A DNA stretch of 55,132 nt from a virus (Duplodnaviria > Caudoviricetes): positions 1 through 55,132 of the IMG/VR virus record IMGVR_UViG_3300025971_000014; one strand, 5' to 3'. Below are positions 16,862 to 53,054 of this stretch, piece after piece. The translations under genes were made by a program, and so were the position numbers. The notes under the pieces are model-generated. The model was not told the origin of the DNA. It saw only the letters and a program-made list of their open reading frames with translations, and made no database searches. The stretch's first letter is position 1; each line of letters begins with the position of its first letter.

Positions 16862-17476
16862 TCAGAAGTGGATGAGCGCCGCAACGCCGAAGACGTTTAT
16901 GTCGAAATCATCGACGTCATCATAGCGTTGCCATTGCGCGCGGACACTGAATGTCTTGATCACTTGGTAGCGAACGCCTAGCCCGTAAGTGAGGTTCGTT
17001 CCAGAGTCTTCGTAGGATGGACGACCATCCGGGATCGAGGTCTCATACTTGGATTTCCAGAAAAACGCTCCGGCCTTGGTGTAGATGTCTACATTCGCAC
17101 TCACTGGGAAAGCAATGCTGCCGGTCAATTCGAAGCCCATCGCCCGCCACGATGATGATGCGGGGAAAAGTCCTTGATCAGCCGAAGGCGGACCTGGAAG
17201 CGCTCGCTCGCCATTCACGATCTCGACTTGTCCGAGGGTTTCCGTCTTCCCGAGCCACGTATGCCCCAGTTCGATGCCAAATGTCCGGTTGAGCTGCCGC
17301 CCTACGAACAACCCATAGGTCGTATCGTGCTCGTCGCAACTGTAGTAGACGTTCGTCGTCGCGTCATCGCAGGACTTATTAGCCTTTCCATAGCCAAGGG
17401 CAGCGCCGGCATACCAATCCTCTGCCCATGCGTTCGAAAACAACAACGCCGATAGCAACACAAGCACCACTCTCAT
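16862..17476 (-). CDS. OmpA-like/Ail-Lom-type outer-membrane beta-barrel protein
   Basis: Signal peptide AWA|ED, WYAG..LG, alternating strands YGLGVRY..SVRAQWQRY, terminal Phe. Confidence 0.88.
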   Translation of the reverse strand: MRVVLVLLSALLFSNAWAEDWYAGAALGYGKANKSCDDATTNVYYSCDEHDTTYGLFVGRQLNRTFGIELGHTWLGKTETLGQVEIVNGERALPGPPSADQGLFPASSSWRAMGFELTGSIAFPVSANVDIYTKAGAFFWKSKYETSIPDGRPSYEDSGTNLTYGLGVRYQVIKTFSVRAQWQRYDDVDDFDINVFGVAALIHF

Positions 17477-20400
17477 GACACGCCTCCTCTCAAGTCGCCT
17501 TGCGGCGAACCCATGATCACATTCGCAATACCGTTGATGTATTTGCCCGCCGCGCCGCCCGTGCCGCTGCCGCTACCCGTTCCGCCCGCAAGCCCTGGAT
17601 TGCCACCGGCGCCCGACAATCCCACGCATACCGCGATGACTGCGCCTCCAGATTCTGTGGTGCCGTCGGCTGCCTCGGGCTGACTCGCCTCATTGGTGCC
17701 GGAGAGGCCTGGGTCGGTGCCCGCGGCACCACCGCCGCTGCAGACGACGAACTGATTGCCAGCGCCGCCCCCGCCTCCACCCCAAATCTCACCCGCAGCA
17801 TTTTCAAGTCTCAACAAACTTTCCACCAGTAAAGCGTCGCCACCCGCCCCGCCATCATCAGTAGTGAAAGGATAACCATCGCCGCCCTTCCCGCCCTTGC
17901 CTTGTATCCTCCCGCGGTTCTCAAGCGTGAGTAATACATTCGCCGGCCAGCTGCCCGTCCGCAATGCCGGAGAGGATGTGGAAGTAGAGCCCACCGTTAC
18001 GCCGGAGATGATGATAAAAGTTATTTGTTCGCTAGGCGAGCCCCCGAGCGGCGGAGCGTAGAGCGAGTCGTGGATCGTCCGGAGGTTCAGGTTGTAATCG
18101 TCGTTCTCGATATAGATGATCCGCTCGACGGATTCTTCGCCCTCCTGCACGGTAAAGTGGACCTCCTGCGCCTTCACCCGGATGTCATTTTCGCCGCGAG
18201 CGAGTTGCGTCACCGCCATCGGCGTCGGCTCTAGTTCCCCGATTTCGTCCTGAAGCTCTGCAACTTCGAGATAGAACTGCTGCGTGAGTTCGAGCGCCCC
18301 ATCGCGGTCGGCGTAGAGTCGGAACTCGGCCTCGATCGGCGGGTCACGGAACTGGGCGAGGATGCGATCGGCCGTGTCCTCTGCAAATGACCTCCCGAAC
18401 TGCGGTATCCAGCGCGAGAACACTTCGCGGATCGCCGGCACGCCGTACTGCGTAGAATCCTCTGCGTCGGTATCGACCACGACCAGGCGCGAGCGGAAGT
18501 TCCTGCGCTCTTCTAAGTCTTCCACCGGGCTCTTCTGGCCGTAGTAGACCCAGACCTCAGAAACACGTTTAGAGATCTGGAGCTTCGAGGAGAAGGAGTC
18601 CTCGAGGATCCAATCGTCGTCGTTGATCGTGGGCGTCGGTACCGCGGCGCGGAGGGCGCGAAACTGGATCATCTGGGTAACTGGGTCAGGCCAAACCGTG
18701 AAGCCGGCCTGCTCGGCAAGCTCACCAATCAGCTCATTAACCGGAGTTGGGTCGGCGATGCGCGCGGTATAGAGCTGCGTCAGTTGTTCCGCCTGGGTGT
18801 CCCAGTCCGCAGAATCTATGAGAGAAGCCGATATCTCCGAATAGTTGACCAGCAAGTCCTGAACGATGTCGTGGCATAGCTGGGAATCGTAGACCAGCAC
18901 CCACTGGACCAAGTCCTCCTGGTCGTGCGCTGCCGCTACGGTATCGAGTGCGCCCCGCGTCAAGAGATTGAGCGTATCGCCAGAGCGGCTGCACTTTATG
19001 ACCTCTTCTCCGATCGCGACGTAGAACTCCGACGGACTTCCGACTATCGCAGGATAGTCGAGATCGCCAATTCCCGTGGGGGAAAGCGTGGCGCTAGTCG
19101 CCACCGCGCTGATGTCCGCGAGCAACTCGCCCCTCGAAGCGGTAGGAGCAACGGCCTTTTTCGCCTCGATCTTCGAGAACAGGTCCTTCGCGGTGATCTT
19201 GACCCGGCCATTCACAGGCCCGTCGACGCGGTCAATAATATAGTTCCGCACTCGCATCTCATCTAATGTCTGGCCGATGTAACCCTCGCGCACACGGCAT
19301 GCGTAGTTCGAATGGTAGGGATTGCGCGCGAGCCACTTGCCCCAGAATGTTCCTGACTCATAGGGGTCGTAGCCATCACTCGCTAATTCCGCGAATGGAT
19401 TACCTGCTTGATTAATGGTCCATACGTCTCCAGTCGATGACGTAATGGTCGTATCCCCAAGTGCAGATAGAGACGGGTCAAAGTCGATAAGCAAGGTCCC
19501 ATCAATTCCACTATAGACATGAACGCTGTATATCTTTCCAGAGATTACATTGTTGCTTCCATCGAAATCCGGATTGATCCTCCACGGATCATCCCTAATT
19601 GCTATGGAAGTCGATCCCGCGGTCGTAACAGCGTCTCCGATTTGAGTCCAGTTTTCTCCGTCTTGTGATTTATAAAATGTAACGACGTAATTCGATGGAC
19701 TTTCTGAGGTCTCAAGATCAATGGTCGCCCGGATATGGATTGCTTCTCCATCAGTCGCATTGACGATTTGCGTAGAGTTAGCTATTTTTAACGTCCCGCC
19801 CGAATCCCACCAAAATAGTGTTAGTCTTCCACGTGGTGTATTGCTCCCACCTGTGACAGATAACATGAACTGACCGATCAATCCTCCGGTATCCCGCTTT
19901 GCAATTATATCGGTGCGAATTGGAGTCGGAGTCCAATCATCCAGAGCTATGTGAACGCGCACATCCAGATCATTAAAAGTGGTAGTAATGCCGCCCGGTG
20001 ATCCCGGATCAGGCGTGCTAACGAAATCGCCTACCATCCCCTTCATCAATAAATACTCAGCCGGACCTGCATCACCTGTTATTCGTTCCAAGCGATAGGG
20101 ATCAACGTGTAGATCGCTATGTTTGTGATCGAATAGATCAACAGTCACGACTTCGCGTTGCCCGAGCGCAGAAGCACTCCGATCCATGGCACCGAGGTTG
20201 ATTGCAGCCGGGTTGGTGCTGATCGAGATCAGCGAGGGGATAATATTAGATATGTCTTCGAGCGGGGAACCAATCTCGCCCACGCCGTATTCGAGTAGCC
20301 CGACTTGATCACGCGCGAATCGAAGCGTCAGAGATTCCGGATTGTAGTTCGTCGGATCTTGGCAAGTGACGCGCGTATTGAAACACTTTCTGTCACCGGT

Positions 20401-20520
20401 GACCCCGAGCTGTGCCTGGCATCCCCCCGTCGGGGATCCGAAGGCGTCTCCGTAGCGTCGCGAGCATATCGGTTGAATTACCTCAAAGAAGATGACCGAT
20501 TCCGATCCGTATTCGGCCAT
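17473..20520 (-). CDS. Large tail tip/hub-central fibre protein
   Basis: 1015 aa, two genes after the TMP; N-terminal Cys cluster (C..C..KCFNTRVTC), Gly-rich C-terminus; 6 GSP motifs. Confidence 0.82.
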   Translation of the reverse strand: MAEYGSESVIFFEVIQPICSRRYGDAFGSPTGGCQAQLGVTGDRKCFNTRVTCQDPTNYNPESLTLRFARDQVGLLEYGVGEIGSPLEDISNIIPSLISISTNPAAINLGAMDRSASALGQREVVTVDLFDHKHSDLHVDPYRLERITGDAGPAEYLLMKGMVGDFVSTPDPGSPGGITTTFNDLDVRVHIALDDWTPTPIRTDIIAKRDTGGLIGQFMLSVTGGSNTPRGRLTLFWWDSGGTLKIANSTQIVNATDGEAIHIRATIDLETSESPSNYVVTFYKSQDGENWTQIGDAVTTAGSTSIAIRDDPWRINPDFDGSNNVISGKIYSVHVYSGIDGTLLIDFDPSLSALGDTTITSSTGDVWTINQAGNPFAELASDGYDPYESGTFWGKWLARNPYHSNYACRVREGYIGQTLDEMRVRNYIIDRVDGPVNGRVKITAKDLFSKIEAKKAVAPTASRGELLADISAVATSATLSPTGIGDLDYPAIVGSPSEFYVAIGEEVIKCSRSGDTLNLLTRGALDTVAAAHDQEDLVQWVLVYDSQLCHDIVQDLLVNYSEISASLIDSADWDTQAEQLTQLYTARIADPTPVNELIGELAEQAGFTVWPDPVTQMIQFRALRAAVPTPTINDDDWILEDSFSSKLQISKRVSEVWVYYGQKSPVEDLEERRNFRSRLVVVDTDAEDSTQYGVPAIREVFSRWIPQFGRSFAEDTADRILAQFRDPPIEAEFRLYADRDGALELTQQFYLEVAELQDEIGELEPTPMAVTQLARGENDIRVKAQEVHFTVQEGEESVERIIYIENDDYNLNLRTIHDSLYAPPLGGSPSEQITFIIISGVTVGSTSTSSPALRTGSWPANVLLTLENRGRIQGKGGKGGDGYPFTTDDGGAGGDALLVESLLRLENAAGEIWGGGGGGAGNQFVVCSGGGAAGTDPGLSGTNEASQPEAADGTTESGGAVIAVCVGLSGAGGNPGLAGGTGSGSGTGGAAGKYINGIANVIMGSPQGDLRGGVS

Positions 20521-20523: not shown

Positions 20524-20685
20524 TTATCGTCCCCGGCCTTGCCGAGAGCGCGCCTCCTCCGCGCGCCAGCGCCCAGCAGCAGCGTGCTCTGCAGCTTTCC
20601 GATTCTTCTTGAGGCGCGAATTAATGCGGGCATCGGCCGCCCGCTTCATGAGGGTGCGGACTTTGGGATTGAACTTGTTCCTCAC
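20524..20685 (-). CDS. 53-aa very basic peptide (below the ORF-track cutoff)
   Basis: GTG overlaps the upstream stop and the ORF fills the gap up to the tail-tip gene. Confidence 0.4.
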   Translation of the reverse strand: MRNKFNPKVRTLMKRAADARINSRLKKNRKAAEHAAAGRWRAEEARSRQGRGR

Positions 20686-21530
20686 TCATCCCCCACAGCT
20701 TGGAGGTTCCAGCTGACCGACATGTAGTCGAGGAATCCCATGTAGGCCGGGGCGATGTCCTCTCCCGTCCATGCGTAGGCGACCTCGTCCGTCCGTTCTC
20801 CCGGTCTCCACGCGAAGAAATATGGATAGCGTCTGGCGGCTTGGACGAACGGCTCGAAGTTCGTCCGATACCAGTCCGCGTCGAGTTGGTCGAACGACAC
20901 CGTCCCGGTGTAGCCGCGGCGGCGGATGTTCTGTCCCAAGAATTGGCCACCTCGGGAGAGCATCTGTTCCATCACCGTCTGGCGCGAAAGGACCAAAGGA
21001 GTGTGCGCACCGCGTATCGCCTCTGGCATCCAGAGCGAGAGCCCGACATAGATCACCGCGATCCTCGGGGGAAACGGCGTCGGGCTGCCCCCGAGCGTGA
21101 TCCTCATCCTTCTGGCATCCCTGATGGTGTCAAGAAAGATCAGAGGTTTATCGTCGGTCGGGATATAGGCCGAGGCGAGCGATTCCCAAAAGGTTTCGGG
21201 AGACCCCGCCCCGGCGTCAAGCGTTGTCTCCACGGTGACCGAGATGCCGCCCGTGGACCCGATGTTGTGCGCCGCGATCCCGACGTAGTCGATGTTCTGA
21301 GTCGTCGACCAGGCGAGCTCCCAAGTGGCCGGCATCTCGGAGGGCTCCCAGAATTCTGCGGTGTCGGGCCTCAAAGGTGAATCCGACGGGCCGGTCCCGG
21401 TCTCGCTCGAGGCCGTGACGTCTGCCGCCACCGCCTCTCGGGTGAGCGTATCCCACCCGATGCGAGCGTTCAGCATGGGCCTCTCGGCCGCTTCCTCTGC
21501 AGCCTCGTAGGCCGCGGTGAAGATGATCAT
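20682..21530 (-). CDS. Distal tail/minor tail protein
   Basis: Immediately after the TMP; 2 GSP motifs. Confidence 0.7.
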   Translation of the reverse strand: MIIFTAAYEAAEEAAERPMLNARIGWDTLTREAVAADVTASSETGTGPSDSPLRPDTAEFWEPSEMPATWELAWSTTQNIDYVGIAAHNIGSTGGISVTVETTLDAGAGSPETFWESLASAYIPTDDKPLIFLDTIRDARRMRITLGGSPTPFPPRIAVIYVGLSLWMPEAIRGAHTPLVLSRQTVMEQMLSRGGQFLGQNIRRRGYTGTVSFDQLDADWYRTNFEPFVQAARRYPYFFAWRPGERTDEVAYAWTGEDIAPAYMGFLDYMSVSWNLQAVGDE

Positions 21531-23689
21531 CAGACCACCACCAACCTTCCTCCATCGTCCGTATTTTCATTGAGTCGCTCAACAAGCTCGCGCAACTGTT
21601 GCCGCGAGAACACCTCGCCCTCCAATTTGATCACCGTCGTCTGGCCCGGCTGTCGTGCCGCCGGACCCGCGGTGCCCTCCGGCAACCCAGTGGCAGGGCT
21701 CGCCGGGAACACCCCGATCGCCCCGCCACCGCCGAACTGAGTATTGCGGATTGCCTGTATGTTGGCCCCCGTAGCAGCAGCCGCAATCGCTGCCATCGCG
21801 GCACCACCCGCAGGACCGCCCCAGGATGCACCCCAAGCGTAGGCGCTCTGGACGGCTTCTATGCCCTTGATGATGGCGTTGGCAAGGGAGGCGATCTTGT
21901 GGATCTCGAACCACTTCTTGCTCTGAGTAGCGGCCGTCGAAGTGAGCTGCATCATCATGCTCGCGCCTTCGGAGATGAGTTGACGGTTTGACATCTGCGC
22001 GAACTTCCTGCGCTTCAGCTCCGCCTCCGCCCAGATGTCGCCCATCCGCGCCTGGTGTTCAAGCTCCAACTGCTCCCGCAGGACGTTGTATTCCACCCCG
22101 ATGTCGATCTCCTGCTGCTCAGCAGCGCGGAGCCATTCCATCTTCGCTTCAAACTCGACCTGGAGTCTTTCGCGCTCGCTCATCGCTGCGGTAGCTATGC
22201 CTTGAGCTTCTGCTGCTATCGTGGCGACGTAGCGGTTGTTGATCGCCTCAAGCTCGTTCGCCAGACGCACCTCTTCGGTCTGGAGTCTCGCGCCCGTGCG
22301 CGTCTCGTTCGCCGCGCGGTCAGCTTCCGCCGCCTGGACCTTGATCGCTGCGACCCGCGCCTTCGCGATGTCGCCCTGCTTGCGGTATATCTCCTCCTCC
22401 TGCTGGAGACCTCTGATCAGGACTTGGAGCCTGGCATCCTCCGCAGCCGCAGTAGCAGCAATGACCTCCATCCGCCCGATCTGACCTTGGGCCTCGGCTT
22501 CCCTCACGAGGTCGAGCTGGAGCTTTATGGCGGATTCGTATTGGTCGACGAAACCACGGACCATCGCGATCTGTTCGTCATACTGCTGCTTGTTCGCGAT
22601 CTCTGGAGCCTTGACCTTGAACGCCGACCCGATCGTGGAGGCGTCGAAGTTATCGCGGAACTTCTGAACTACCGCTGTCCCGGAATTAACGCTGTCGATG
22701 AACGCGAGCGTCTCCTGTTTCGCGACTTTCACATCTTCCGCCCACTGCACCCATATCTCGCCGATGCCACGGAAGTTGCCCTCCGATAACGCACCGAGCG
22801 AAGCGCCGACTGCGGCGATTGTTTTTCCAAGACCCTGGAACGCGAACCACGCCGTGCTGGCGACCTTCAGGATGGCTTCCAAAACCATCTTCGCGCCGCG
22901 GCCCATCTCGTTGAAAGCCTCTCCGTCCTTCGCCGCCTGAATCATGCTGTCCGAAAGAGACTGGAGCAGCGGCAGAACCTGGACCATGATCGCATTGCCG
23001 AGTGCCCTTTGAGAATCGACCAGCCGCGTTAGGTTGTCGTTGAACGCCTCCGCCGCCTGCGCGGTCTCCGTGGAGATGAGATGCCCGAGCTGTTCGGCTT
23101 CCAGCCGCATCGCCTCCAGGCCCGCGGCGCCTTGATTCAACATCGGGATCATAGAGGCCCCGGCCCGCCCGAAGAGCATCACCGCCAGAGCAGACTTCCC
23201 GGCCCCATCCTCCATGCCCGAGAACTTGACCGCGACCTCGCGCAGGATCGTGTCCGCGTTCTTGAGTTCCCCATTCGAGTCCTTCAGGTTGATTCCAAGG
23301 GCCAAGAACGCTTCTCGCGCCTCGCCCGTCCCCGCCGCAGCGTCGCTGATATTCCGGTTCAACCGCGCCATCGAAGTACCCAGCGCTTCGGTCGATACAT
23401 CCGAGAGCCGTGCTGTGTAAGCCAGGGCGGATAGAGACTCCACGCTGACGCCAGCGCCCTGCGCCATCTTGTTCAGCTTGTCCGCAGCCTCAATGGCGCT
23501 CTTGGTCATAGCGGCAGCGGCGGCGGTGGCAAGGGCGAACGCCGTGCCGAGCACTTTCCCGGCTTGCTCCGCGTCGCGCTTTATCCGCTCCATCTGCTTG
23601 GCGGCGAGATGCGCGGCTTTCCCGAGATCCTTGGAGAACTCAGCGGTATTTGCCGCCAAACTCACCACCAAACTGCCCAGAGAAGCCAT
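21530..23689 (-). CDS. Tail tape measure protein
   Basis: MASLGSLVVSLAANTAEF start, Ala-rich helical, FGRAGASMIPMLNQG; follows the chaperones. Confidence 0.93.
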   Translation of the reverse strand: MASLGSLVVSLAANTAEFSKDLGKAAHLAAKQMERIKRDAEQAGKVLGTAFALATAAAAAMTKSAIEAADKLNKMAQGAGVSVESLSALAYTARLSDVSTEALGTSMARLNRNISDAAAGTGEAREAFLALGINLKDSNGELKNADTILREVAVKFSGMEDGAGKSALAVMLFGRAGASMIPMLNQGAAGLEAMRLEAEQLGHLISTETAQAAEAFNDNLTRLVDSQRALGNAIMVQVLPLLQSLSDSMIQAAKDGEAFNEMGRGAKMVLEAILKVASTAWFAFQGLGKTIAAVGASLGALSEGNFRGIGEIWVQWAEDVKVAKQETLAFIDSVNSGTAVVQKFRDNFDASTIGSAFKVKAPEIANKQQYDEQIAMVRGFVDQYESAIKLQLDLVREAEAQGQIGRMEVIAATAAAEDARLQVLIRGLQQEEEIYRKQGDIAKARVAAIKVQAAEADRAANETRTGARLQTEEVRLANELEAINNRYVATIAAEAQGIATAAMSERERLQVEFEAKMEWLRAAEQQEIDIGVEYNVLREQLELEHQARMGDIWAEAELKRRKFAQMSNRQLISEGASMMMQLTSTAATQSKKWFEIHKIASLANAIIKGIEAVQSAYAWGASWGGPAGGAAMAAIAAAATGANIQAIRNTQFGGGGAIGVFPASPATGLPEGTAGPAARQPGQTTVIKLEGEVFSRQQLRELVERLNENTDDGGRLVVV

Positions 23690-24298: not shown

Positions 24299-24727
24299 TT
24301 ACGGCGCTGTCGTCGATACCAGTCCCGTGATCTCCACCACGACCGCCGACTCGATGACGCCGTCAACCGCTGCGTTGATCGGGACCGAGAGCACGAAGCC
24401 GTCGAAGTAGTATACCGTTTGCGGCGAGTCGGTCATGATCACGCGGAAGTTCCGCGCCTCACGATCAGACTTCGCCGTGACCAGCGCGGCGTGCTGCGCG
24501 TTCGCTGGGATCAGGTTCAGGGTAAACGTGCATTGCCCCTCATCCTGCAGCCCCATGCGCTTCTGCTTCGCGGTCGAGGCGAGGTCGGTCACGTCGATGA
24601 CGGATGCCGAACCCGTCCGGAACGCGAGGTCCCGGAGCTCGGGAATCGTCGAGTAGCTGTACGGCGACCCGATGTCGGCGTTGATCTGGAGCAGTACTCC
24701 TTGACTCTCTAGTGCGTTTGAACTCAT
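24299..24727 (-). CDS. Tail tube (major tail) protein
   Basis: IDVTDL.S..K..GLQDEG..F.G.V motif; AGGAGG RBS; 1 GSP. Confidence 0.88.
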   Translation of the reverse strand: MSSNALESQGVLLQINADIGSPYSYSTIPELRDLAFRTGSASVIDVTDLASTAKQKRMGLQDEGQCTFTLNLIPANAQHAALVTAKSDREARNFRVIMTDSPQTVYYFDGFVLSVPINAAVDGVIESAVVVEITGLVSTTAP

Positions 24728-25559: not shown

Positions 25560-25873
25560 GGCAACTTCGCCCAGACGAAAAGACCTCGACGTCTTCCGAT
25601 CTCGTCGATCCTCAGCACCTGGTAGTCGCGACCATCGAAGGTGATCACCGCAGTCTTGTCGAAGTCATCCCGCCACCGCATCTGGAATCGAATCTGGGCA
25701 CCGTCGATGAATTGCGCCGCCTCGAATAACCGAGAACCGGCGACAGGGAGAACCCCGCCATCCACAGTCGCAAGAGTCGCTAACGTGTTGATCTGGCCTC
25801 CATAGGAATCCCGCGTTACCGTGGGGACCTTGATGATCAAGCGTCTATCAAGTTTGCCGGCTTGCATGTTCAA
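25556..25873 (-). CDS. Head closure/stopper protein (SPP1 gp16-like)
   Basis: MQAGKLDRR..RDSYGG..RWR..FDGRDY. Confidence 0.88.
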   Translation of the reverse strand: MNMQAGKLDRRLIIKVPTVTRDSYGGQINTLATLATVDGGVLPVAGSRLFEAAQFIDGAQIRFQMRWRDDFDKTAVITFDGRDYQVLRIDEIGRRRGLFVWAKLP

Positions 25874-44920: not shown

Positions 44921-45480
44921 TACTCCACCGCCTCGCCCCGCTGACCCTCTGCTTTTTTCTCGAATGCGAAGCCATGCTCTGCCATCACCGTTGGGACATG
45001 GCATTTTCGTCCGCTATGCTTCGCGGCGAACCAACCGTCCCAGTTCTTCGCTGGGGCGCGGAAACAGACGAGGTCCCGTGCCGAGCGGCAGGAGAACCGC
45101 ATCACTGTCCGTGGCTCCCGGACCTTATGAGCTATCCCGAGGCAGAGCACTATATCGAAAAGGTCCGGCGGCTCATGCGACGCAATCCAGTTATCCATGT
45201 GCGCGCACTCGAACCGCATCGGCGGCATCTGGTCCTTACATGCTTTCCTAGCGACCATGAGATGCGATTCCAGTAGCTCGATGCCAAGGACATCCACGGC
45301 ACCCGCGCGCGCGAACTCGCGACCTATGAGGCCCTCGGCGCATCCGAGGTCGATGATCGTCTTCCCCTTGCATTCCGCAACGGCCTGCTCCAATCCCGCC
45401 ATCTGCTCTTCAAGTGTGCGATCCGCGCGGTCCCTGATTCCGGGAACGGCGATCCAGCCCTTGTCGGCGTTAGCGACCAT
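44896..45480 (-). CDS. Class I SAM methyltransferase
   Basis: IIDLGCAEG, GIE, FDIVLCL..H. Confidence 0.88.
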   Translation of the reverse strand: MVANADKGWIAVPGIRDRADRTLEEQMAGLEQAVAECKGKTIIDLGCAEGLIGREFARAGAVDVLGIELLESHLMVARKACKDQMPPMRFECAHMDNWIASHEPPDLFDIVLCLGIAHKVREPRTVMRFSCRSARDLVCFRAPAKNWDGWFAAKHSGRKCHVPTVMAEHGFAFEKKAEGQRGEAVEYWRRKSPP

Positions 45481-46279
45481 AATGCCCGATACCCCGGAGT
45501 CGTTGTTCCTCGAAAGCACGCCAACAAGCGCCATCACGCATTTCAGAAACGCTCCACTGGTTCGCCGCGAGGAGTTCCATGAATAACTGCCGCGAATCCA
45601 TCGATGCGCTCGTATCGGGTGTTTCAATCATCGTCAGATCGCTCAAGCCGTACCACTGTGCGGCGCACCGATGAGTGCAGAACACCGGGATGCCAGCGAG
45701 CAACGCCTCTACCGCCGCACAGCTCATCGACGTCACGAGGGCGTGCGCCCCGACCAAATCCTTCTGCAAAGGGATCGTGCTCCCTTTTCTTCGAACCCTG
45801 ATCTCTCGATCAGTGAACTTGCGCAGAGCGGCCGCCGCATCGGCTTCCCAATCGCCCTCATACCCCGCGCATATCTTCGTGAATTCCGCAGACTGCGGGC
45901 ACACAAGCACGTGATCCCCGCCCTTCCGCCAGGGTTGGATTGTGAGGCCCAACGCCTTAAAGCGTTTCGGTCCCTCATCGTTCCACACCGCGTTCATCGC
46001 ATCGCATTGAAGTGCATTCCTCGTCACCCTGAAGTAGCGTTCGCGCGTCGAATCGAAATATCCATTATCGATGTAAAACCAACCCCTCTTTTCTGCCTTC
46101 GCCTGTTCCCAGAGCGCGAGCCAAGCCGGTCGAACTCCGTAAAATGCAGCGTCCCCATCAAGAAGGCGCGGCTCCGTCACGCTGGCAACCTTACCGCAGC
46201 AGCCCGCGGCGAAGGCGCGCATGATCTCAACCGACTTTTTCTTCGAGCCCAGTTCGTAGCAAGTTATGGAACGGCTCAC
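45470..46279 (-). CDS. Putative glycosyltransferase (capsule-synthesis KpsC/KpsS-like fold)
   Basis: YIDNGYF, HVLVCPQS, VTSMSCAAVEALLAGIPVF, QWS..E. Confidence 0.68.
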   Translation of the reverse strand: MSRSITCYELGSKKKSVEIMRAFAAGCCGKVASVTEPRLLDGDAAFYGVRPAWLALWEQAKAEKRGWFYIDNGYFDSTRERYFRVTRNALQCDAMNAVWNDEGPKRFKALGLTIQPWRKGGDHVLVCPQSAEFTKICAGYEGDWEADAAAALRKFTDREIRVRRKGSTIPLQKDLVGAHALVTSMSCAAVEALLAGIPVFCTHRCAAQWYGLSDLTMIETPDTSASMDSRQLFMELLAANQWSVSEMRDGACWRAFEEQRLRGIGHYGR

Positions 46280-47057
46280 CCGATTCGATCTCTCTCAGAC
46301 TCCATTGCGACCACGCCATCCGCTCGAATGCGGGCTCACGCTCCGGGTGAAGAGGTTTCTCGACGTACCCGGCTGATGCCGCTGATTTTAATATCCAAAA
46401 TGGGGCCATGCAAAAAACCGGGATGCCTTCGATCAGAGCATGAATCCCCGCACCAGAAGACCAGATAAAAACCACCCATGCGTTTTGAAGGTCGGCAGCG
46501 AGCGGACGTTTCGGTGCTGAGTTCCCAGGATGCCGCCTCACGACGACCGGGCGTGCCGTCAACTTCCTAATCTGGGCCGCCGCCGTATCGGCCCAGTCGA
46601 CAGGCATTATCTGTTCTCCAACACCAAAGGAACGATTCGGACAAACCAAAACGTGCTCGCCCGCCCGCCGCCAATCCTTTAATTTTACCCCAAGCGCGGC
46701 GAATCGTTCAGGCCCGCCGTTCGGCCATTGTCCTCTCCCGTTATTCCAGCCCCACGCAAGGGAGTAGTAATGCTCCGGCTTCGGGCCGCCGGGATGGACA
46801 TCGAACTTAGGAATCGTGCCGCCAACCCCGAGGTAGCCATTCTCCGCGACCAGGACTCGCCCGCCGCCACGTTCAAAGCGCGTCGCGACCTCGTGCTGAT
46901 ATCCGTATCTGTTCCACGTCAGTAGCAGATCGCCCGGAGCGCCGTGAGTCGGTGCGTCATGGATGACTTCGTATCCGACCGCTTTCAGTCCAGAAGCAAA
47001 AGCTTCACGCCGGTAGTGCGGCGCTTGTCTGATCAGAGAATATGCCCGCTTCCCCAT
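46227..47057 (-). CDS. Putative glycosyltransferase (KpsC/KpsS-like fold), paralogue
   Basis: AENGYL, HVLVCP, RRHPG, WSS.AGI.ALIEGIPVF, QWS..EI. Confidence 0.7.
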   Translation of the reverse strand: MGKRAYSLIRQAPHYRREAFASGLKAVGYEVIHDAPTHGAPGDLLLTWNRYGYQHEVATRFERGGGRVLVAENGYLGVGGTIPKFDVHPGGPKPEHYYSLAWGWNNGRGQWPNGGPERFAALGVKLKDWRRAGEHVLVCPNRSFGVGEQIMPVDWADTAAAQIRKLTARPVVVRRHPGNSAPKRPLAADLQNAWVVFIWSSGAGIHALIEGIPVFCMAPFWILKSAASAGYVEKPLHPEREPAFERMAWSQWSLREIESGEPFHNLLRTGLEEKVG

Positions 47058-47706
47058 TCAACGCCTCCGCGAGGCTCATCTTCTTGAACGCTTCTATCGC
47101 GCTGCCCGGCGAGCAGTTGATGATCTCGATCCCGAGCTTCTTCGCGCCCGACTCCGCGAAACTGTAGCGCGAGATGACGGCCTTGTAGGGCGGCTCGCTA
47201 CCGTCGGGATGGTTGCCGAACCAATGCTTTTGTTCTCCCGATCCGCGCTTGCAATCATACCCGAGGAGCAGGATGCGCTTCGCACCGGATAACACCACGA
47301 TATTCAACGTCTGGTAACCCGAATGAGATCCGGTGACGATCTTCGTAGGATCAGCACTCAGGCCGCAATTGTTGTCCCCAGGCCCCGCGTTCTTCAGGAC
47401 GTGAACTGCAGGATCTGAAATCGCGCTCACGTTCGAGGTAATGCTGCACTTCTGCCCCGCGAAGGCTTTGAACTCCGGCTTCTCGCAGTGCCATTTCCAC
47501 CATTTAGGATCGGCAAAATAGCAGAGGTCGGCCCACGGCGCCATCAAGTAGCAGTCATTCACTACCGCGACCTTGAAGCCAGCTGCCCTCACCGCCTCGC
47601 ATTGTTCCCTCGTAAGACTCGGCCCCGATGCGATGCAGACCGCAGTTTGGCCTTCCCACGCCCGCGTTACGCGCGAGATGCCATTCACCTTCTCCAGCAG
47701 CATCAC
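47005..47706 (-). CDS. DUF115/Maf-like or sialyltransferase-like glycosyltransferase
   Basis: CIASGPSL, VVND, D.KWW, SGYQ.L..GAKRILLLGYD, IINCSP.S. Confidence 0.7.
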   Translation of the reverse strand: MMLLEKVNGISRVTRAWEGQTAVCIASGPSLTREQCEAVRAAGFKVAVVNDCYLMAPWADLCYFADPKWWKWHCEKPEFKAFAGQKCSITSNVSAISDPAVHVLKNAGPGDNNCGLSADPTKIVTGSHSGYQTLNIVVLSGAKRILLLGYDCKRGSGEQKHWFGNHPDGSEPPYKAVISRYSFAESGAKKLGIEIINCSPGSAIEAFKKMSLAEALNGEAGIFSDQTSAALPA

Positions 47707-48302
47707 GCGAACTCGGTCTTCACCCTCAAATTATCAAGCAACCCCACCGCGAACTCGCGCGGGATCTCGGTCATGTTTGAGGGAATCAGAAGCTCGCGAT
47801 TTTCATACTTAGTCGAGACAACCGCCATGACGTATTCCCGGACCCGGATCGGCATGTTCTTCGGCGCGGCGTAACCAGCGGTGAAAGCAATTCTAACGGC
47901 GCCGACAACAGCTCTGGTCACCGGCCATGTCCCGTTGTAGAGCGGGGTCAATCTTCCGGGATACGACCCCGTGTCCACGAGGAAAGCATCCGGGCTCCCG
48001 CTCAAGACCTGATCAGTGCCGTCGTTGTCCGTGTAAGTGATTGAGTCCACTGTGATGAGTGGCGGATAGGGTATTTCTATCGGTTCATCGTCGGCGGGGA
48101 ACTCATCCATAACGAGTTGAAACGATCTCCGCGCGAAGCACCGCCCGGTGATATCCTCGGCTTTCTCGCGCGCCGATTTGATCAGTAGCAGGAGCATCGC
48201 GTCCTGAGTCGTGTCGTCGGAATCGACACGCGCCCAAAGACGGGCCTCGGCCAACGTCACAGGTTCAACCAACGGAGGCGCGAGTTCTAGGACGTATCTC
48301 AT
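47703..48302 (-). CDS. Head-tail adaptor (HK97 gp6/phiE125 gp8-like)
   Basis: EPVTLAEA..RVD..D..I.SARE.AE..TGR, AVRI.FTAGY, YENRE; 1 GSP. Confidence 0.9.
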   Translation of the reverse strand: MRYVLELAPPLVEPVTLAEARLWARVDSDDTTQDAMLLLLIKSAREKAEDITGRCFARRSFQLVMDEFPADDEPIEIPYPPLITVDSITYTDNDGTDQVLSGSPDAFLVDTGSYPGRLTPLYNGTWPVTRAVVGAVRIAFTAGYAAPKNMPIRVREYVMAVVSTKYENRELLIPSNMTEIPREFAVGLLDNLRVKTEFA

Positions 48303-49276
48303 TTGAGTTTCACGACACTCGCCGGCGCGTTGCTCGACTCAACCCGTGCAGACTTGCCGGGTTCACCGTGCTTCACAGCTAGGACCCAGTCAGGAGAACC
48401 GTGGCCCGGGGCCGCGTTGGTCTTGTCGGCGGCGCAATACCACTGCGAACCGTTCCAGGTGACTTGGTCGCCCTTGGTGTATTCGACATCGGACTTGTAG
48501 AGACCACGGTAGATGACCGACCGACCGATGCGGGTTGCTTTCCTCACCTTCCCGCTCGCCCAGATCGTCACCTTCTCGATACGTCTGCCGTCCTCAAGAT
48601 GCTCCTCGATCTCGTCCCAGACCCCGTCCATCGCACAAGCCCAACCGGCGGTAGCAAGAGTCGTCGGTCCCAACGTCTCCGGAAAAGGATCGGTCGCCCG
48701 AACAGCGCAGAACGTCCCGCCACGGAAGCAGGCCCAAGTCCCGCGCGGGTAACTCTTCCCGTGGTCTATCCCGTCGAGCGGCATGATCGCCAGGGCATCT
48801 CTCCCGGGTTCACCGTCCTTCCCGTCCCGACCATCTTTCGCGTCCCTTCCGTCTTTCCCGTCGCGGCCATCGGCGCCGTCTTTTCCATGCTCGCCTCGGT
48901 CTCCGGGTTTACCATCTTTCCCGTCGATCCCGTCCTTCCCATCCTTGCCGTTGATCCCGTCCTTGCCGGCTTCACCGGGATTGCCGTCCTTCCCATCCTT
49001 CGGGATCGGGATCGTAGAGACCGACCGCGCGATTTCGTTCTCGATCGCGGTCATCACGACCGTCATATCGGCGTCGCGTCCGTCTTTCCCTTCTGCTCCC
49101 GCCTTGCCTTGGATTCCTTCGGGGCCTGGATCGCCCTTCTCGCCCTTCGCGGGCGCGGGCAAGGCTTTGATCTGGGCTTCGAGTCCGGACACCCGCAGGG
49201 CGAGCGCGTCGAAGGCTTTCCGGACGTAGCCCTCGACAGACTTATAGAGCTCTTCTACTAGATTGGGTTGAGCCAT
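48299..49276 (-). CDS. Collagen-like (Gly-X-Y) virion protein with C-terminal CBM-like repeats
   Basis: Two Gly-X-Y runs (about 8 and 22 triplets, GKD/GRD rich), YTKGDQVTWNGSQW; 1 GSP. Confidence 0.85.
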   Translation of the reverse strand: MAQPNLVEELYKSVEGYVRKAFDALALRVSGLEAQIKALPAPAKGEKGDPGPEGIQGKAGAEGKDGRDADMTVVMTAIENEIARSVSTIPIPKDGKDGNPGEAGKDGINGKDGKDGIDGKDGKPGDRGEHGKDGADGRDGKDGRDAKDGRDGKDGEPGRDALAIMPLDGIDHGKSYPRGTWACFRGGTFCAVRATDPFPETLGPTTLATAGWACAMDGVWDEIEEHLEDGRRIEKVTIWASGKVRKATRIGRSVIYRGLYKSDVEYTKGDQVTWNGSQWYCAADKTNAAPGHGSPDWVLAVKHGEPGKSARVESSNAPASVVKLK

Positions 49277-50640
49277 GTCGGCCCCCGATTGAATTTAGCG
49301 ACCGCAGATTCAAGCGAGGCGGTCATCTCCGCGTCCTCATCTTCTTCGTTCGCGGGCGCGGAGGCTGGAGGCGGTGGAGCAACTTTAGATTCGTCAGGCA
49401 GCTTGCGATCAACGAATGCTGAAAGCGGATAATCTTGATGCTGTAAGAAAGGAGTTTCGCCGCCGTTTACGGGTCGCAGATTTTCATCTGCACGCGCTTC
49501 ATTGGGAGCCAGGAAACCTCCTCTGACACCGATTTGGTTTTTCTCAAAGCGTGTTTTAGGATCCATCCGCAGGAGCTCATCGACATCGATCCGGACGCGC
49601 ACATCGTTTCGGAGTGCAAGTCCCTCTTTCAGCAATTCTTCCATAGCCTCGATATATGGATGAAGAACCCTGTTGTAATATTCTTGATTCATCGCGGCGT
49701 CGATTTTGACGTCCTTCTGGGCGGCGATCTTATAGAGTGGCACTCCATAAGCTCTTGCAACATCCTCCACCGTCCAGCCGAGTTGTTCAATCAATTGCGC
49801 CTGATCTGCGGGCATGGTGAAGGGCTCGTACTTCAAACCACTACCCGTCACCAGGAGTTTCCCGATGTTCGCCCCCGCGAAGCCCTTATCAAACTGGTCC
49901 TTCATCCGCGCCATCGTCGCCTCATCGATCATCCCGGGCGCGGTCAGGTGTCCGGAAGGTCTGGACATGTTCTCGAAGAACTTGGAGGAGTTGGTCTGGA
50001 TGCGGCTGGCCTGGGTGGTTGACATCGCGGCTGCCCATAGGGGAGGAACCCCGATGAGAGGATGGAAGAAACATTTGCCTCGATCGTGAATGATCTCGGA
50101 AGCGGGAACGGAGACTTTGCCGGCAGGAACGCCGGCGAGCCAGTCCTCCTGAAGCTGGTAGAACACTTCCCCGTCGGGAGCGACGAGCGGGGTGACCCGC
50201 TGGGAGTCGATGACGTACATAGCCACCACGACACCGCGGTCATCCCTTTCTTTCAGGACGTAGGTATTTCCCCAGATGAGTTTGGCAAGAAGCCACTGCT
50301 CGACGAACTGCATCCGCGTCTGATAGCGGTTCGGCTTTCTCAAAACTGGGGAGAACGCGGGCGACTCGAATTCGCCCCAAATCCCGTTCCCTTGTCTTTG
50401 CTCGAGGAGCATCCCGAGCTTAGCGATGTCCCCAGAGATGAGGGAATTACAGGCATAGACCGCGGAGAACGAAAGCAGGTTCTGCGTGGAGTCGAGGACA
50501 AGATTGCGCTGCCACATCCCACCGAAGGCTTCGGTGATCCAGCCCCAACTGCTCGGAACGCGCAGCAGAGGGGTCATCGGCGTAACGAGGTTGGTATCTC
50601 CCTGCTTCGTGAACGGAATCCGGATACCGAAGAGCTTCAA
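49258..50640 (-). CDS. Portal protein, HK97 family
   Basis: SAVYAC..I..DIAKL, KPNRYQT, GNTY, EIIH, VARAYGVP, PNEAR..ENL.P..GG. Confidence 0.95.
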   Translation of the reverse strand: MKLFGIRIPFTKQGDTNLVTPMTPLLRVPSSWGWITEAFGGMWQRNLVLDSTQNLLSFSAVYACNSLISGDIAKLGMLLEQRQGNGIWGEFESPAFSPVLRKPNRYQTRMQFVEQWLLAKLIWGNTYVLKERDDRGVVVAMYVIDSQRVTPLVAPDGEVFYQLQEDWLAGVPAGKVSVPASEIIHDRGKCFFHPLIGVPPLWAAAMSTTQASRIQTNSSKFFENMSRPSGHLTAPGMIDEATMARMKDQFDKGFAGANIGKLLVTGSGLKYEPFTMPADQAQLIEQLGWTVEDVARAYGVPLYKIAAQKDVKIDAAMNQEYYNRVLHPYIEAMEELLKEGLALRNDVRVRIDVDELLRMDPKTRFEKNQIGVRGGFLAPNEARADENLRPVNGGETPFLQHQDYPLSAFVDRKLPDESKVAPPPPASAPANEEDEDAEMTASLESAVAKFNRGPTWLNPI

Positions 50641-50915: not shown

Positions 50916-53054
50916 CTACCCGGTGTAGGCCGCGGCCTGAATCCAGGCGCACGCCTGGGTGCGCGCCTTGGTCCAGTTGACGTAACGCACCGCCTTGATC
51001 GCGATGGATTCCGTCTGCCACATGGAGACCAGCGAGGCCCCGGTCGCCGTCGCCGTCGATTGGATCGTGCTGCCGGTAGCGTCCATCATCTCCAGGGAGA
51101 CCTGGTCGCTTGCCTCGACCGTCGCCGCACCGTCGTCCGCCAGCAACACCTCGCCCGGGAAGATCAGGACGATGATGTTAGCGTATTGCGGTGAACCCGC
51201 GATCGTGGCTTGGCTCGAGGTGATCACGGGAATCCCGAGGATGGAGCCTCCGGTCATCGTCAACCCCGGGAACTGCGGGTTGCCGAGCGAGGTGACCATC
51301 AACGAGAGGGCTTGGGCTGTGACCTCCGACATCACCAGCACCGCACCGGCCATCGAGAGATTCGCGGCCAAGGCGGTGGAGGTGAGCGACTTCCAGTCCG
51401 CGACGAACGTCGCGTAGGTAACCCCGGTCGGGGTGACTGGCGTGACCCCGTAGGTGAGGGAAGCGGGCTGGATGTTGGTCTGCCCGCCCTGGTTCGGATC
51501 GATCAGCGAGAGGTCCGCAACCGACGCGCACGCCTTCGCCAAATCGCCCCTGACCAGTGCTTCGGCGTTGGGACTCGAAACCCGCGCGAGCTCCTTGTCG
51601 ATCGCCGCGACTCCGGCGACCTTCGTGATGCCGAGCGTCGCGGTGCCCGTGGTGCCCTTGGACATCGGGATACCCTGGCCCTGGCCGACCCAGTAACCGG
51701 TGGTGCCGCCGGTCAAGCTTCCGACCCGAATGTTAAACGGGACTCGTCGCCAACCCGGGATCCTTCCGATAATGGTCATCGGTCGCAGGAAGTCGATGAA
51801 CTCCGAGGCGATGTCCTGGGCGTAGGCGAGTTGCGAGGCCCAACCCGAGGTCGTAGTATCCGCCGCGGCGATCTCGTTCGCCTTCAGCACGATCGCGACC
51901 TCCGGCGCGGTGTCCATCCACCGCGGGACGCTCCGGTAGTACTCCTCCGGCGTGTAGCCTTTCTTCTCCAGGTGAGCTCTGGCGACGCACATCGCCGCCC
52001 GCGCGAACCTGATCCCGGGTTCGAGCTTGGTAGTGACTCGCACCCCGGCCCCGAAAGGAACCCTGGCCTTTGAACCCGACTCCGCATCCATGCCGGCCTG
52101 CGGTTGGATCGGCTGCGCCTTCTCGATGTTCAACGCTTCCAGGTCGCGCATCCTCTTGAGCTGCGCGTCGATGGTCTCGACTTCGGCCTTCAGGCCGTCG
52201 AACTCTTTCTGCTGCTCCTCACCGAGCGACTCGCCCTTCGTAGTTGAGTCCTCCATGAGTTTGTTCATCGCGGAGACGTTCGCGGCCCGCTTGGCCTCGT
52301 ACGATGCGATATTTTCCTTGATGGTAGGCATTTGCTTGCTCCTCAGTTTCACGGTTGCGGCCGCAGCGCCGGCCTGTGGTCTCTCCAGCTTGACCGGGGC
52401 TGCCGTCTTCGCGCGTAGCGCCGCGCTCAGGCTCTCCCGGTCGATGCTCTTGATCGTGTTAATCGTTGCGTCCATGTTCGCCGGTATCGTCACGGCAGAA
52501 AGTTCAAACCATTCCCATGAGGTGAACCTCTGACCGCCCCACGGCTCCTTCGGGTTCAGAGGTTCCATCCCGTCCTTCGCAGGCATGAAGCCGATCGAAA
52601 GACCTCTGACGAGGCCGTGCTTCACAGATTGCCAGGCTTCATCGAGCCGGTCCTTTAATTTCCCTGCTTCGGAGATTTTCGCGAACCGGGCCTGAATCTG
52701 TATCCCGTCATTGGTGACCGAAGCTTTCACGACGTGGCCGATAGGCTCCGAAGAACGGTGCTGCCAAAGTAGGGGGAGGGGAAGCTTGAACTGCGCGCCC
52801 CGGGGTTCGACGATGTCCCCGACGCGGTCGGTCGTGGGAGTGGTCGCGATGCCCTCGATTAACCGCTGGTCCTCGTCCAAATTCTTGACGACGAACGCGG
52901 AGTAGGCGCGGCGCATCGACTTACTGGAATCCCACTGGGATTCGCACATCGCATTCCGTTGATCTGGATCGCTCACTTCTCCCGACATCTCGGAGTGACA
53001 CCTTGAGATGAAATCGTCGTGGCTCTCGCCGTCGTGCGGTTTGGGCATCGGCAT
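50916..53054 (-). CDS. Prohead protease-major capsid fusion (HK97 fold)
   Basis: LLWQH, GLSIGF, ELSAVTIPAN protease motifs, coiled-coil delta domain, WVGQG..P capsid motif; 1 GSP. Confidence 0.93.
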   Translation of the reverse strand: MPMPKPHDGESHDDFISRCHSEMSGEVSDPDQRNAMCESQWDSSKSMRRAYSAFVVKNLDEDQRLIEGIATTPTTDRVGDIVEPRGAQFKLPLPLLWQHRSSEPIGHVVKASVTNDGIQIQARFAKISEAGKLKDRLDEAWQSVKHGLVRGLSIGFMPAKDGMEPLNPKEPWGGQRFTSWEWFELSAVTIPANMDATINTIKSIDRESLSAALRAKTAAPVKLERPQAGAAAATVKLRSKQMPTIKENIASYEAKRAANVSAMNKLMEDSTTKGESLGEEQQKEFDGLKAEVETIDAQLKRMRDLEALNIEKAQPIQPQAGMDAESGSKARVPFGAGVRVTTKLEPGIRFARAAMCVARAHLEKKGYTPEEYYRSVPRWMDTAPEVAIVLKANEIAAADTTTSGWASQLAYAQDIASEFIDFLRPMTIIGRIPGWRRVPFNIRVGSLTGGTTGYWVGQGQGIPMSKGTTGTATLGITKVAGVAAIDKELARVSSPNAEALVRGDLAKACASVADLSLIDPNQGGQTNIQPASLTYGVTPVTPTGVTYATFVADWKSLTSTALAANLSMAGAVLVMSEVTAQALSLMVTSLGNPQFPGLTMTGGSILGIPVITSSQATIAGSPQYANIIVLIFPGEVLLADDGAATVEASDQVSLEMMDATGSTIQSTATATGASLVSMWQTESIAIKAVRYVNWTKARTQACAWIQAAAYTG

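Follow-up and report, generated by a model that had tools for sequence, protein, structure and literature searches.

An order-specific Gly-Ser-Pro tag on the outer virion proteins of a siphovirus, possibly an acceptor site for the products of a phage-encoded sugar cluster

We analyzed the whole of IMG/VR virus record IMGVR_UViG_3300025971_000014, a stretch of 55,132 bases with a completeness estimate of 78% (hereafter, the window), whose siphovirus late operon encodes the tripeptide Gly-Ser-Pro (GSP) in 13 proteins. GSP is a real, selected, order-specific loop tag on the outer virion proteins of this uncultured phage. A first-pass annotation made from the sequence had proposed the tripeptide as an acceptor site for O-glycosylation, and we consider it plausible, if a little short of probable, that the phage's own sugar cluster, a 13-kb block within the same operon, O-glycosylates the GSP serines.

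An independent gene model returned 26 GSP tripeptides in 13 of 22 late open reading frames (ORFs; 7,928 amino acids [aa]), distributed among the proteins just as the first-pass annotation had counted them by hand, and the four codon triplets that it quoted, in the capsid, collagen-like, adaptor, and tube genes, lie on the minus strand where it had placed them. The serine codons are split between TCN (22) and AGY (4) and the glycine and proline codons also vary, so the signal resides in the protein, as had been claimed. Shuffling each protein gave an exact composition expectation of 2.51, in keeping with an earlier rough estimate of 2 to 3, versus the 26 observed (Poisson p=5.5e-18), and GSP ranked first in enrichment among all tripeptides of the late ORFs; the runners-up FED, LFE, and KDG are confined to internal repeats of one to three proteins. 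A first-order null calculated per protein as N(GS)xN(SP)/N(S), which is conservative since the GS and SP counts already include the GSPs, raised the expectation to 6.99 (p=2.8e-8). Residue order matters as well: against 26 GSP, the late ORFs hold 2 GPS, no SGP, 2 SPG, 5 PGS, and 6 PSG, and glycine precedes 26 of their 50 SP dipeptides. Ten of the GSPs fall in three paralogous proteins (51-59% identical) and reduce to 5 sites, which leaves 21 independent sites versus 2.13 expected (p=2e-14, or p=1e-10 with a 1.6x family baseline). The enrichment therefore survives composition, dipeptide, and permutation controls, the outcome that the first-pass annotation had anticipated from a tripeptide test. 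Its remark that near variants recur fared less well, since DSP (4 versus 1.70 expected), ESP (4 versus 1.51), and SSP (4 versus 2.45) are not significantly enriched. GTP is not enriched either (2 versus 2.42 expected), and no wider sequence context common to the 26 GSPs was found. The three GSPs reported in early proteins are present, with 2.03 expected. GSP is, in short, an order-specific motif in excess of both composition and its own permutations, as a sequon would be.

The late operon runs on the minus strand from 55065 to 17473, and PHROG matches set its order. On the head side lie the small and large terminases, a capsid fusion, a 70-aa ORF (50637-50849), the portal, a collagen-like protein, and the adaptor; the middle consists of the sugar block (47706-34261), a 138-aa protein, three paralogues of ∼455 aa, and proteins of 1,089 and 99 aa; the tail side continues with head closure, neck, tail terminator, tube, chaperone, and tape measure, and the operon ends with the distal tail protein, a 53-aa ORF (20524-20685), and the tail tip. 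The GSP-bearing proteins, together with two internal proteins that serve as contrasts, are as follows.

50916..53054, minus strand: protease-scaffold-major capsid fusion, 712 aa (phrog_617 major head protein, 2.2e-123; phrog_80 protease, 2.7e-37), with one GSP at residue 620 (51189-51197), within the mature capsid part
49258..50640, minus strand: portal, 460 aa (phrog_2271, 1.6e-96), 0 GSP, internal contrast
48299..49276, minus strand: collagen-like protein, 325 aa (Pfam Collagen, 8.8e-12), GSP293 (48392-48400)
47703..48302, minus strand: head-tail adaptor, 199 aa (phrog_442, 1.6e-23), GSP102 (47991-47999)
33823..34239, minus strand: Thr/Ser/Gly-rich protein, 138 aa (called from its translation and codon-position G+C content [GC]; no family match found), GSP90 (33964-33972)
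29467..33577, minus strand: three paralogues of 454, 453, and 461 aa with 3, 2, and 5 GSPs (recognized by their pairwise identity; no PHROG or Pfam match found), two GSP sites being common to all three and one common to two
26172..29441, minus strand: 1,089-aa protein (only phrog_38872, function unknown, 7.4e-20), GSP85 (29181-29189)
25870..26169, minus strand: 99-aa protein (weak phrog_17896 match), GSP49 (26017-26025)
24769..25134, minus strand: tail terminator, 121 aa (phrog_347, 4.1e-10), GSP13 (25090-25098)
24299..24727, minus strand: major tail (tube) protein, 142 aa (phrog_158, 5.2e-23), GSP20 (24662-24670)
21530..23689, minus strand: tape measure protein, 719 aa (phrog_9483, 1.1e-76), 0 GSP, internal contrast
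20682..21530, minus strand: distal tail protein, 282 aa (phrog_11633, 1.2e-52), GSP109 and GSP148
17473..20520, minus strand: tail tip/fiber adhesin, 1,015 aa (phrog_11439, 1.1e-137), GSP28, 84, 173, 494, 827, and 1004

Late proteins were grouped by role before counting, with the 138-, 70-, and 53-aa ORFs outside the grouping and the exposed class defined as the proteins expected, by role, on the outside of the particle. The 14 exposed proteins hold 25 GSPs in 5,270 aa, and 12 of them carry at least one. The internal and non-virion class (terminases, protease-scaffold part of the fusion, portal, chaperone, and tape measure) holds none in 2,397 aa, and the sugar cluster none in the 4,577 aa of its 18 ORFs; the 26th GSP sits in the ungrouped 138-aa protein. 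With composition expectation as exposure, the exposed class differs from the internal class and cluster combined at a binomial p=4e-7 and from the internal class alone at p=0.002. The avoidance of internal and non-virion proteins that the first-pass annotation described is thus upheld, and the family level agrees when the portal is compared with the tail tip and distal tail protein (see below). Its statement that 16 glycan-cluster ORFs lack GSP is right about the absence but not about the number, which is 18 and includes a methyltransferase gene at 44896-45627. When the tail tip was modeled with AlphaFold from 97 sequences (predicted local distance difference test [pLDDT] score of 88.2), five of the six GSP serines came out in coil, which is weak by itself since coil makes up 53% of the model.

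The same tripeptide is overrepresented in the wider families of the tagged tail proteins. Database homologues of the tail tip (119 sequences, 35-66% identical) hold 228 GSPs versus 46.0 expected, with at least one in 86 sequences and a maximum of 8, and 119 homologues of the distal tail protein hold 82 versus 15.5 expected, 62 of them being positive; 119 portal homologues (50-70% identical) hold 7 versus 14.7 expected. When the 120 tail-tip sequences, the window included, are aligned, the GSP serines spread over 65 columns, and there are insertion columns whose occupants are mostly GSP (20 of 24 where the window has GSP494, and 11 of 14 in a column absent from the window). GSP density per 1,000 residues is 9.3 in columns filled by <40% of sequences (14.9x regional composition), 20 in intermediate columns, and 0.68 in core columns, and the non-core columns of the 119 homologues contain 133 GSPs and only 3 to 19 of each permutation. 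The Gly-rich C-terminal part of the tail tips is nothing special, since GSP (47), SPG (41), and PGS (46) are about equally common there. In the distal-tail family, the majority of GSPs gather at a single hot spot, the column of window residue 110, where GSP is found in 55 of 77 occupants, window included. Across 78 metagenome loci with more distant tail modules we counted 101 GSPs versus 62.4 expected, and GSP stands 121st (1.61x) in their pooled tripeptide ranking, in which conserved family motifs dominate; the non-late ORFs on the contigs of 33 relatives hold 66 versus 56.5 expected. GSP enrichment is a graded trait, stronger the closer the relative, and the window stands at its upper end with ∼8-10x. 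A different tripeptide stands out in one of these relatives, the 74,557-base IMG/VR record G001 (loci L013-L016), where Asn-Gly-Lys occurs 11 times in 10 ORFs versus 1.88 expected (p=4.8e-6), an excess that is borderline after correction for 8,000 tripeptides.

Comparison with individual relatives indicates how the sites came about. The capsid GSP620 is kept in record G006 and in all close relatives whose capsid gene is present (six, 59-69% identical), the collagen-like GSP is kept in three of three (L004, L007, and L008) and absent in L009, and the adaptor GSP is kept in the sole alignable close relative, though its flanks differ. At 41% identity, L009 has GPP, at the capsid site, and GD- in place of GSP in the head module. 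The adaptor site reads EAG, EAG, and GKP in G002, G001, and P12026, with GSP in 4 of 12 aligned sequences; the tail terminator site is HAP in the G001 homologue, and the tube homologue of L108 (49% identical) carries GSP at residue 19. None of the window's eight tail-tip and distal-tail GSPs was found in the locus-derived relatives L024, L035, G001, G002, P12026, and GJ44: six of the eight sites are covered by the nearest two, L024 and L035 (57-61% identical), neither of which has GSP at any of them, and the other four (30-41% identical) likewise do without them. Tail-tip GSP28, 84, and 494 lie within 6- to 12-residue insertions absent from relatives, distal-tail GSP109 lies within an insertion of ∼5 residues, tail-tip GSP173 falls within a lectin-like inserted domain, with SAG in the counterpart from L035, and the other three are substitutions at variable spots. 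The expectation that GSPs would prove to be lineage-specific loop insertions is well matched by these proteins, in which all eight sites are absent from locus-derived relatives (≤61% identical) and four of the eight fall in insertions of 5 to 12 residues. GSP arose by lineage-specific insertions and substitutions. We also note that the tail tip contains an inserted beta-rich domain of ∼230 residues (18400-20070, residues ∼150-380) and that a similar domain in L035 (1666-2310; 31% identity) sits in the distal tail protein instead; judging from this resemblance, the domain appears to have moved between neighboring tail genes.

Several further features of the structural genes deserve mention. The gene order terminase, capsid fusion, portal spans 49258-54653, with protease, scaffold, and capsid in one ORF. 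Residues 260-287 of the collagen-like protein, immediately ahead of its GSP, weakly match the carbohydrate-binding module CBM_5_12 (E, 1.2e-4, below cut-off), and the protein matches the C-terminal part of longer "portal" PHROG families, from which we conclude that the portal and the collagen-like protein are fused in some phages. The 138-aa ORF overlaps a longer ORF of 242 aa; the shorter one is taken as real because the translation of the longer looks Arg/His-rich and out-of-frame. GC is 0.47-0.51 over two of the three paralogues (30000-34000), versus 0.54-0.63 in other 2-kb bins, and third-position GC is 0.45 in 32213-33577; the low GC suggests that the paralogue genes were recently acquired from elsewhere. 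The ORF at 23689-24366, after the tube gene, overlaps that gene by 68 bases and has no PHROG match, and its position fits a tail assembly chaperone.

The phage's relatives are phages and prophages of Proteobacteria. Its tail module resembles those of marine gammaproteobacterial siphophages (23-39% identity) and its capsid the PAJU2- and Stx-phage-type capsids (∼40%); neither of two window stretches had a megablast match among 50,697 phage records. A scan of genome contigs reached only six distant prophage loci (36-50% identity, two being 50-residue pieces) in Chlorobiaceae, Advenella, Castellaniella, Bordetella, and two alphaproteobacterial metagenome-assembled genomes, and it returned no close GSP-rich relative and no firm host. 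Single-protein scans gave nothing for the tail tip (in viral and metagenome contigs), for the GT9-like protein of the sugar cluster, or for the cluster's 331-aa protein; reaching relatives took alignment-based scans.

Flanked by the adaptor gene on one side and the tail genes on the other, the sugar cluster (34261-47706) is encoded on their strand, with its transferase genes inside the structural module. Its 18 ORFs include four methyltransferases, three of generic S-adenosylmethionine (SAM)-dependent type and one of FkbM type, and five ORFs without a firm family, two of which belong to phage-specific families with weak glycosyltransferase (GT) leads. Most NCBIfam matches fall below curated cut-offs, so the names used here denote likeness, not identity.

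47005..47706, minus strand: cluster gene, 233 aa, 0 GSP (weak Pfam MptE-like match; E, 0.0084, below cut-off)
46227..47057, minus strand: cluster gene of a phage-specific family, 276 aa, 0 GSP (no Pfam, NCBIfam, or PDB sequence match); its atlas neighbors are viral clusters, the only named lead being Capsule_synth, in 17% of one cluster
45470..46279, minus strand: cluster gene, 269 aa, 0 GSP (weak match to DUF6716 "putative glycosyltransferase"; E, 0.007, below cut-off)
44896..45627, minus strand: SAM-dependent methyltransferase ORF, up to 243 aa, 0 GSP (Methyltransf_25, 1.6e-9)
44009..45004, minus strand: cluster gene, 331 aa (no family match; no relative found in viral contigs); atlas lead Glyco_transf_9, in 30% of one viral cluster
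43272..44039, minus strand: compact GT9-family (heptosyltransferase-like) glycosyltransferase, 255 aa (Pfam Glyco_transf_9, 7.9e-10)
42671..43282, minus strand: SAM-dependent methyltransferase, 203 aa (Methyltransf_23, 1.5e-11)
41916..42674, minus strand: cluster gene, 252 aa (no family match; relatives in L102 and L103)
40859..41944, minus strand: radical SAM enzyme with SPASM domain, 361 aa (Radical_SAM, 3.1e-17; SPASM, 1.1e-8); closest in NCBIfam to protein or cofactor maturase models, none of them above cut-off
39581..40753, minus strand: UDP-galactopyranose mutase-like flavoenzyme, 390 aa (Pfam GLF, 2.7e-23; TIGR00031, 1e-23, below cut-off)
38738..39460, minus strand: FkbM-family methyltransferase, 240 aa (Methyltransf_21, 3.7e-13; TIGR01444, 5.6e-19, above cut-off)
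38055..38747, minus strand: GmhA (sedoheptulose-7-phosphate isomerase)-like SIS protein, 230 aa (SIS_2, 2.8e-12; gmhA, 1.7e-22, below cut-off)
37666..38100, minus strand: heptose-1-phosphate adenylyltransferase (RfaE domain II)-like protein, 144 aa (CTP_transf_like, 1.4e-15; rfaE_dom_II, 1.1e-26, below cut-off)
36722-37669 and 35814-36725, minus strand: two short-chain dehydrogenase/reductase (SDR) sugar-nucleotide epimerase/dehydratase genes (Pfam Epimerase, 5.4e-37 and 2.3e-35); in NCBIfam they come closest to GalE, heptose epimerase, and dTDP-glucose 4,6-dehydratase, each scoring below cut-off
35543-35812, minus strand: XF1762-family protein, 89 aa (NCBIfam XF1762, 6.9e-17, above cut-off; relative in L102)
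34857-35591 and 34261-34860, minus strand: two thiamine-diphosphate enzyme halves, E1 alpha-like and E1 beta-like (E1_dh, 4.8e-27, and Transket_pyr, 9.9e-14)

An ADP-heptose pathway would be represented in the cluster by the GmhA-like gene, the RfaE-domain-II-like gene, and an SDR gene matching the heptose epimerase model (1.9e-23), all below cut-offs; no kinase or phosphatase was found there. Pfam and NCBIfam gave no match to a PglL/PglO-type O-oligosaccharyltransferase among the 18 ORFs, and no kinase or other protein-modifying enzyme was found among them. Searches of four cluster proteins against the PDB by sequence were uninformative. Homologues of the genes at 47005, 46227, and 45470, often with an FkbM methyltransferase, recur as a three-gene cassette around the adaptor gene in many related siphophages (L003, L004, L008, L010-L012, L031, L043, L045, and L080, and also G001, G002, G006, G015, G024, G028, and G033). 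Judged by this recurrence of homologues, the cassette is a conserved part of the structural module without a firm family.

The GT9-like protein scores 38.9 bits against PF01075 (cut-off, 22), which places it in the GT9 family, and it matches the NCBIfam heptosyltransferase I and II models below their cut-offs. Its predicted structure (pLDDT, 71; predicted template modeling score, 0.75; residues 1-64 at low confidence) has a GT-B fold, the best Foldseek matches being WaaF (1psw, 1.2e-8), a Veillonella GT9 protein (3tov), and WaaC (2h1h), with template modeling scores by query of 0.43-0.52. The protein heptosyltransferase TibC (4rb4) ranks ninth (1.3e-6), behind these three. Cysteines C223, C229, and C232 are invariant in seven homologues. 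On this model the product of 43272-44039 is predicted to be a GT9-fold enzyme with a reduced N-terminal half, for which protein heptosyltransferase is only a candidate role. TibC and AAH are WaaC-like GT-B enzymes that use ADP-heptose for the cytoplasmic O-heptosylation of many loop serines in folded protein (PMC4358343). Like them, the window has a GT9-fold enzyme and heptose-pathway-like genes; unlike TibC, whose chains have 374-384 residues, its enzyme has 255 aa and a reduced N-terminal half, and the passages of PMC4358343 drawn on here contain no GSP motif.

If GSPs are acceptor sites for the cluster, the two might be expected to occur together among relatives, as the first-pass annotation had suggested checking. 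We rebuilt the contigs of 33 relatives, took the ORFs that surround the tail tip on its own strand as the late block in which GSP was scored, and called the cluster present when a homologue of any of six GT-like cluster genes was found. The median GSP ratio was 2.1 in the 11 relatives with such a gene (pooled, 52 versus 27.3 expected) and 1.2 in the 22 without (pooled, 62 versus 45.0), a difference in the anticipated direction (one-sided Mann-Whitney p=0.043) that is weak and, since the ratio is correlated with tail-tip identity, confounded by descent. The best supporting case is G006 (87% complete), which has the same layout, genes like those at 47005, 46227, 43272, and 45470, 10 late GSPs versus 2.57 expected, none in its 8 cluster ORFs, and capsid and distal-tail sites in common with the window. 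As a predictor of GSP, the three-gene cassette was rejected (ratio of 1.99 with versus 1.60 without among metagenome loci).

We propose the following mechanism for how tag and cluster might fit together. GSP would be an order-specific recognition tag placed by selection in loops of proteins on the outside of the particle, namely the capsid shell, collagen-like fiber, adaptor, three paralogous proteins, tail terminator, tube, distal tail, and tail tip, and late in infection, while still in the cytoplasm, its serine would receive an O-linked glycan from transferases of the sugar cluster. The cluster would make an activated heptose (through the GmhA-like and RfaE-II-like genes) and possibly other modified sugars (through the Glf-like mutase, SDR enzymes, thiamine-diphosphate halves, four methyltransferases, and radical SAM enzyme); transfer would fall to the GT9-fold enzyme and several GT-like proteins of phage-specific families, and the outcome would be a glycan-coated virion. 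Strict residue order, repeated small insertions in unrelated folds, and outer-only placement lead us to expect a site that an enzyme or binding partner reads while the protein folds or once it has folded, and loop propensity alone is hard to reconcile with them. Among such sites O-glycosylation is the most economical, because a sugar cluster with a GT9-fold transferase lies inside the structural operon of the most GSP-rich phage, and TibC and AAH offer a precedent for O-heptosylation in the cytoplasm. It is plausible, though somewhat less likely than not, that throughout this siphophage clade strict GSP is a cytoplasmic O-glycosylation sequon, with a glycan coat acquired through GSP loops inserted into unrelated outer proteins; the tags might then range, a corollary we hold no more firmly, from a few per genome to the 26 of the window, which would have its own heptose-type sugar factory.

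A number of observations weigh against this O-glycosylation reading. That any GSP serine is modified, that the modification is a sugar, and which enzyme attaches it are all points that we infer, and the cluster may serve another end, such as change of the host lipopolysaccharide (LPS) or DNA modification. The sugar genes score below curated NCBIfam cut-offs, and the GT9-like model is no nearer TibC than it is to LPS heptosyltransferases, its N-terminal (acceptor) half being poorly modeled. The co-occurrence is weak and confounded, relatives whose tail tip is more similar to that of the window also having higher GSP ratios (Spearman 0.44, p=0.011). Nor does the motif follow any one enzyme: the cassette carriers G001, G015, and G033 have ratios of 1.2-1.4 and G002 is likewise without clear enrichment, L137 and L138 encode a GT9-like homologue and have no GSP, and L102 and L103 encode a homologue of the 41916 gene without GSP enrichment. 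The best contrary case is G009, with 8 GSPs versus 2.1 expected and no window-like GT gene, although this record is only 60% complete and a single fiber protein accounts for four of the eight. The portal of G006 carries one GSP. In the tail-tip model, the GSP1004 serine lies in a predicted strand, and the capsid GSP620 and tube GSP20 could be placed on solved structures only by weak alignments (8gta, 2e-6, and 25vd, 0.036) that are too poor to tell the inner from the outer face in the assembled particle. None of the outcomes that the first-pass annotation had named as refuting was encountered. The original claim that GSP is an O-glycosylation acceptor survives as far as a selected, lineage-specific tag on outer proteins, and its final step to a sequon is conjectural, with no enzyme that follows the motif.

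The tag could also be read in other ways. An artifact of composition, of paralogy or descent, of gene calling, or of post hoc motif choice seems to us exceedingly improbable. The three paralogues do hold 10 of the 26 GSPs, GSP is about as common as SPG and PGS in the Gly-rich tail-tip C terminus, and inherited sites inflate the family counts; but the excess persists over the 21 independent sites and under the dipeptide null, a motif that ranks first can owe at most a factor of 8,000 to post hoc choice, only three of the 13 proteins are recognizably related, and non-coding frames carry 10-21 GSPs per frame over the whole window. It is unlikely, yet a serious contender, that GSP is left unmodified and is simply a favored loop element, a tight Ser-Pro turn that aids folding, protease resistance, or contact with the host surface or with an assembly factor (e.g., a prolyl isomerase), while the sugar cluster does something unconnected, for instance altering host LPS or modifying DNA. 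Such an element would sit in loops and insertions, as GSP does, and would be at home with the mild 1.4-1.6x excess in related tail modules, with sites that are inherited hot spots (as at distal-tail column 110), and with the lack of co-occurrence with any single enzyme in relatives. Permutations and near variants should then rise as well, whereas they number 0-6 against 26 in the window and 3-19 against 133 in the tail-tip family, and GTP, SSP, DSP, and ESP are not enriched. A folding motif should not be missing from the portal, tape measure, terminases, and 18 enzymes, nor should it arrive as dedicated 5- to 12-residue insertions at many positions in unrelated folds.

The counts and placement support a sequon but are silent on its chemistry, and GSP might be the site of some other modification or enzyme, be it the cluster's radical SAM/SPASM protein, its methyltransferases with protein as substrate, phospho-type Ser-Pro modification, or an enzyme supplied by the host, all of which we take together to be distinctly unlikely. 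The radical SAM/SPASM protein is a natural suspect given its nearest NCBIfam models, protein or cofactor maturases, but the matches are far below cut-off, such enzymes also act on sugars and cofactors, and the 18 cluster ORFs offer no kinase or protein-modifying enzyme. A host enzyme would fit the loose association that GSP shows with phage GT genes, as well as the enrichment of G009 without one, and GSP richness follows the tail-tip clade and so perhaps host range; it would leave a large sugar cluster in the structural module of the most GSP-rich phage unexplained, and early proteins, which hold 3 GSPs versus 2.03 expected, are not depleted.

Sugars of mycobacteriophages are reportedly attached to capsid and tail proteins. 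Virion glycosylation by phage-encoded glycosyltransferases has been described for actinobacteriophages (Freeman et al. 2023, Cell Host Microbe, as cited in PMC12582341 and PMC13313380). The window resembles that case in having glycosyltransferase and methyltransferase genes in the phage genome, read there as the source of a sugar-coated capsid and tail; it differs in that its relatives belong to Proteobacteria, that its cluster is much larger and looks heptose-based, and that our evidence is a tripeptide tag over 13 proteins. Known sequons include N-X-S/T in eukaryotic viruses and D-(S/T)-(A/I/L/V/M/T) in Bacteroidota, systems that act in the endoplasmic reticulum or periplasm via oligosaccharyltransferases, whereas phage particles assemble in the cytoplasm. 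As with these sequons, a three-residue motif would mark the acceptors, and surface proteins progressively acquire sites, the glycan shields of influenza virus and human immunodeficiency virus being examples (PMC12014285); unlike them, the window yielded no oligosaccharyltransferase among its 18 cluster ORFs. Phage glycosyltransferases also hypermodify DNA via a cytosine methyltransferase/5-methylpyrimidine dioxygenase pathway (bioRxiv 10.1101/2023.12.21.572611). Like such phages, the window encodes sugar-transfer genes, but here the cluster lies inside the structural module, and DNA modification would leave the protein motif unexplained. The literature that we covered, with most subscription journals outside its scope, yielded no paper on a phage GSP sequon or on a sequence rule for phage virion glycosylation, and repeated tripeptide insertion into virion loops appears not to have been described before.

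Sugar-coated phage particles are so far known from a few actinobacteriophages, and if GSP is a glycosylation tag, it builds on both known phage virion glycosylation and sequon-directed glycosylation. The short tag makes the question of a sugar testable by one co-expression experiment, and even without a sugar, an order-specific, loop-inserted, outer-only pattern calls for a function. Were the O-glycosylation reading true, GSP would possibly be a very short tag for cytoplasmic O-glycosylation in bacteria, and glycosylated phages would become predictable from sequence, including in metagenomes. The gain of GSP loops would then be a phage counterpart of sequon accumulation in the glycan shields of animal viruses, and it would bear on how phages hide or stick, that is, on host recognition, stability, and immune recognition in therapy.

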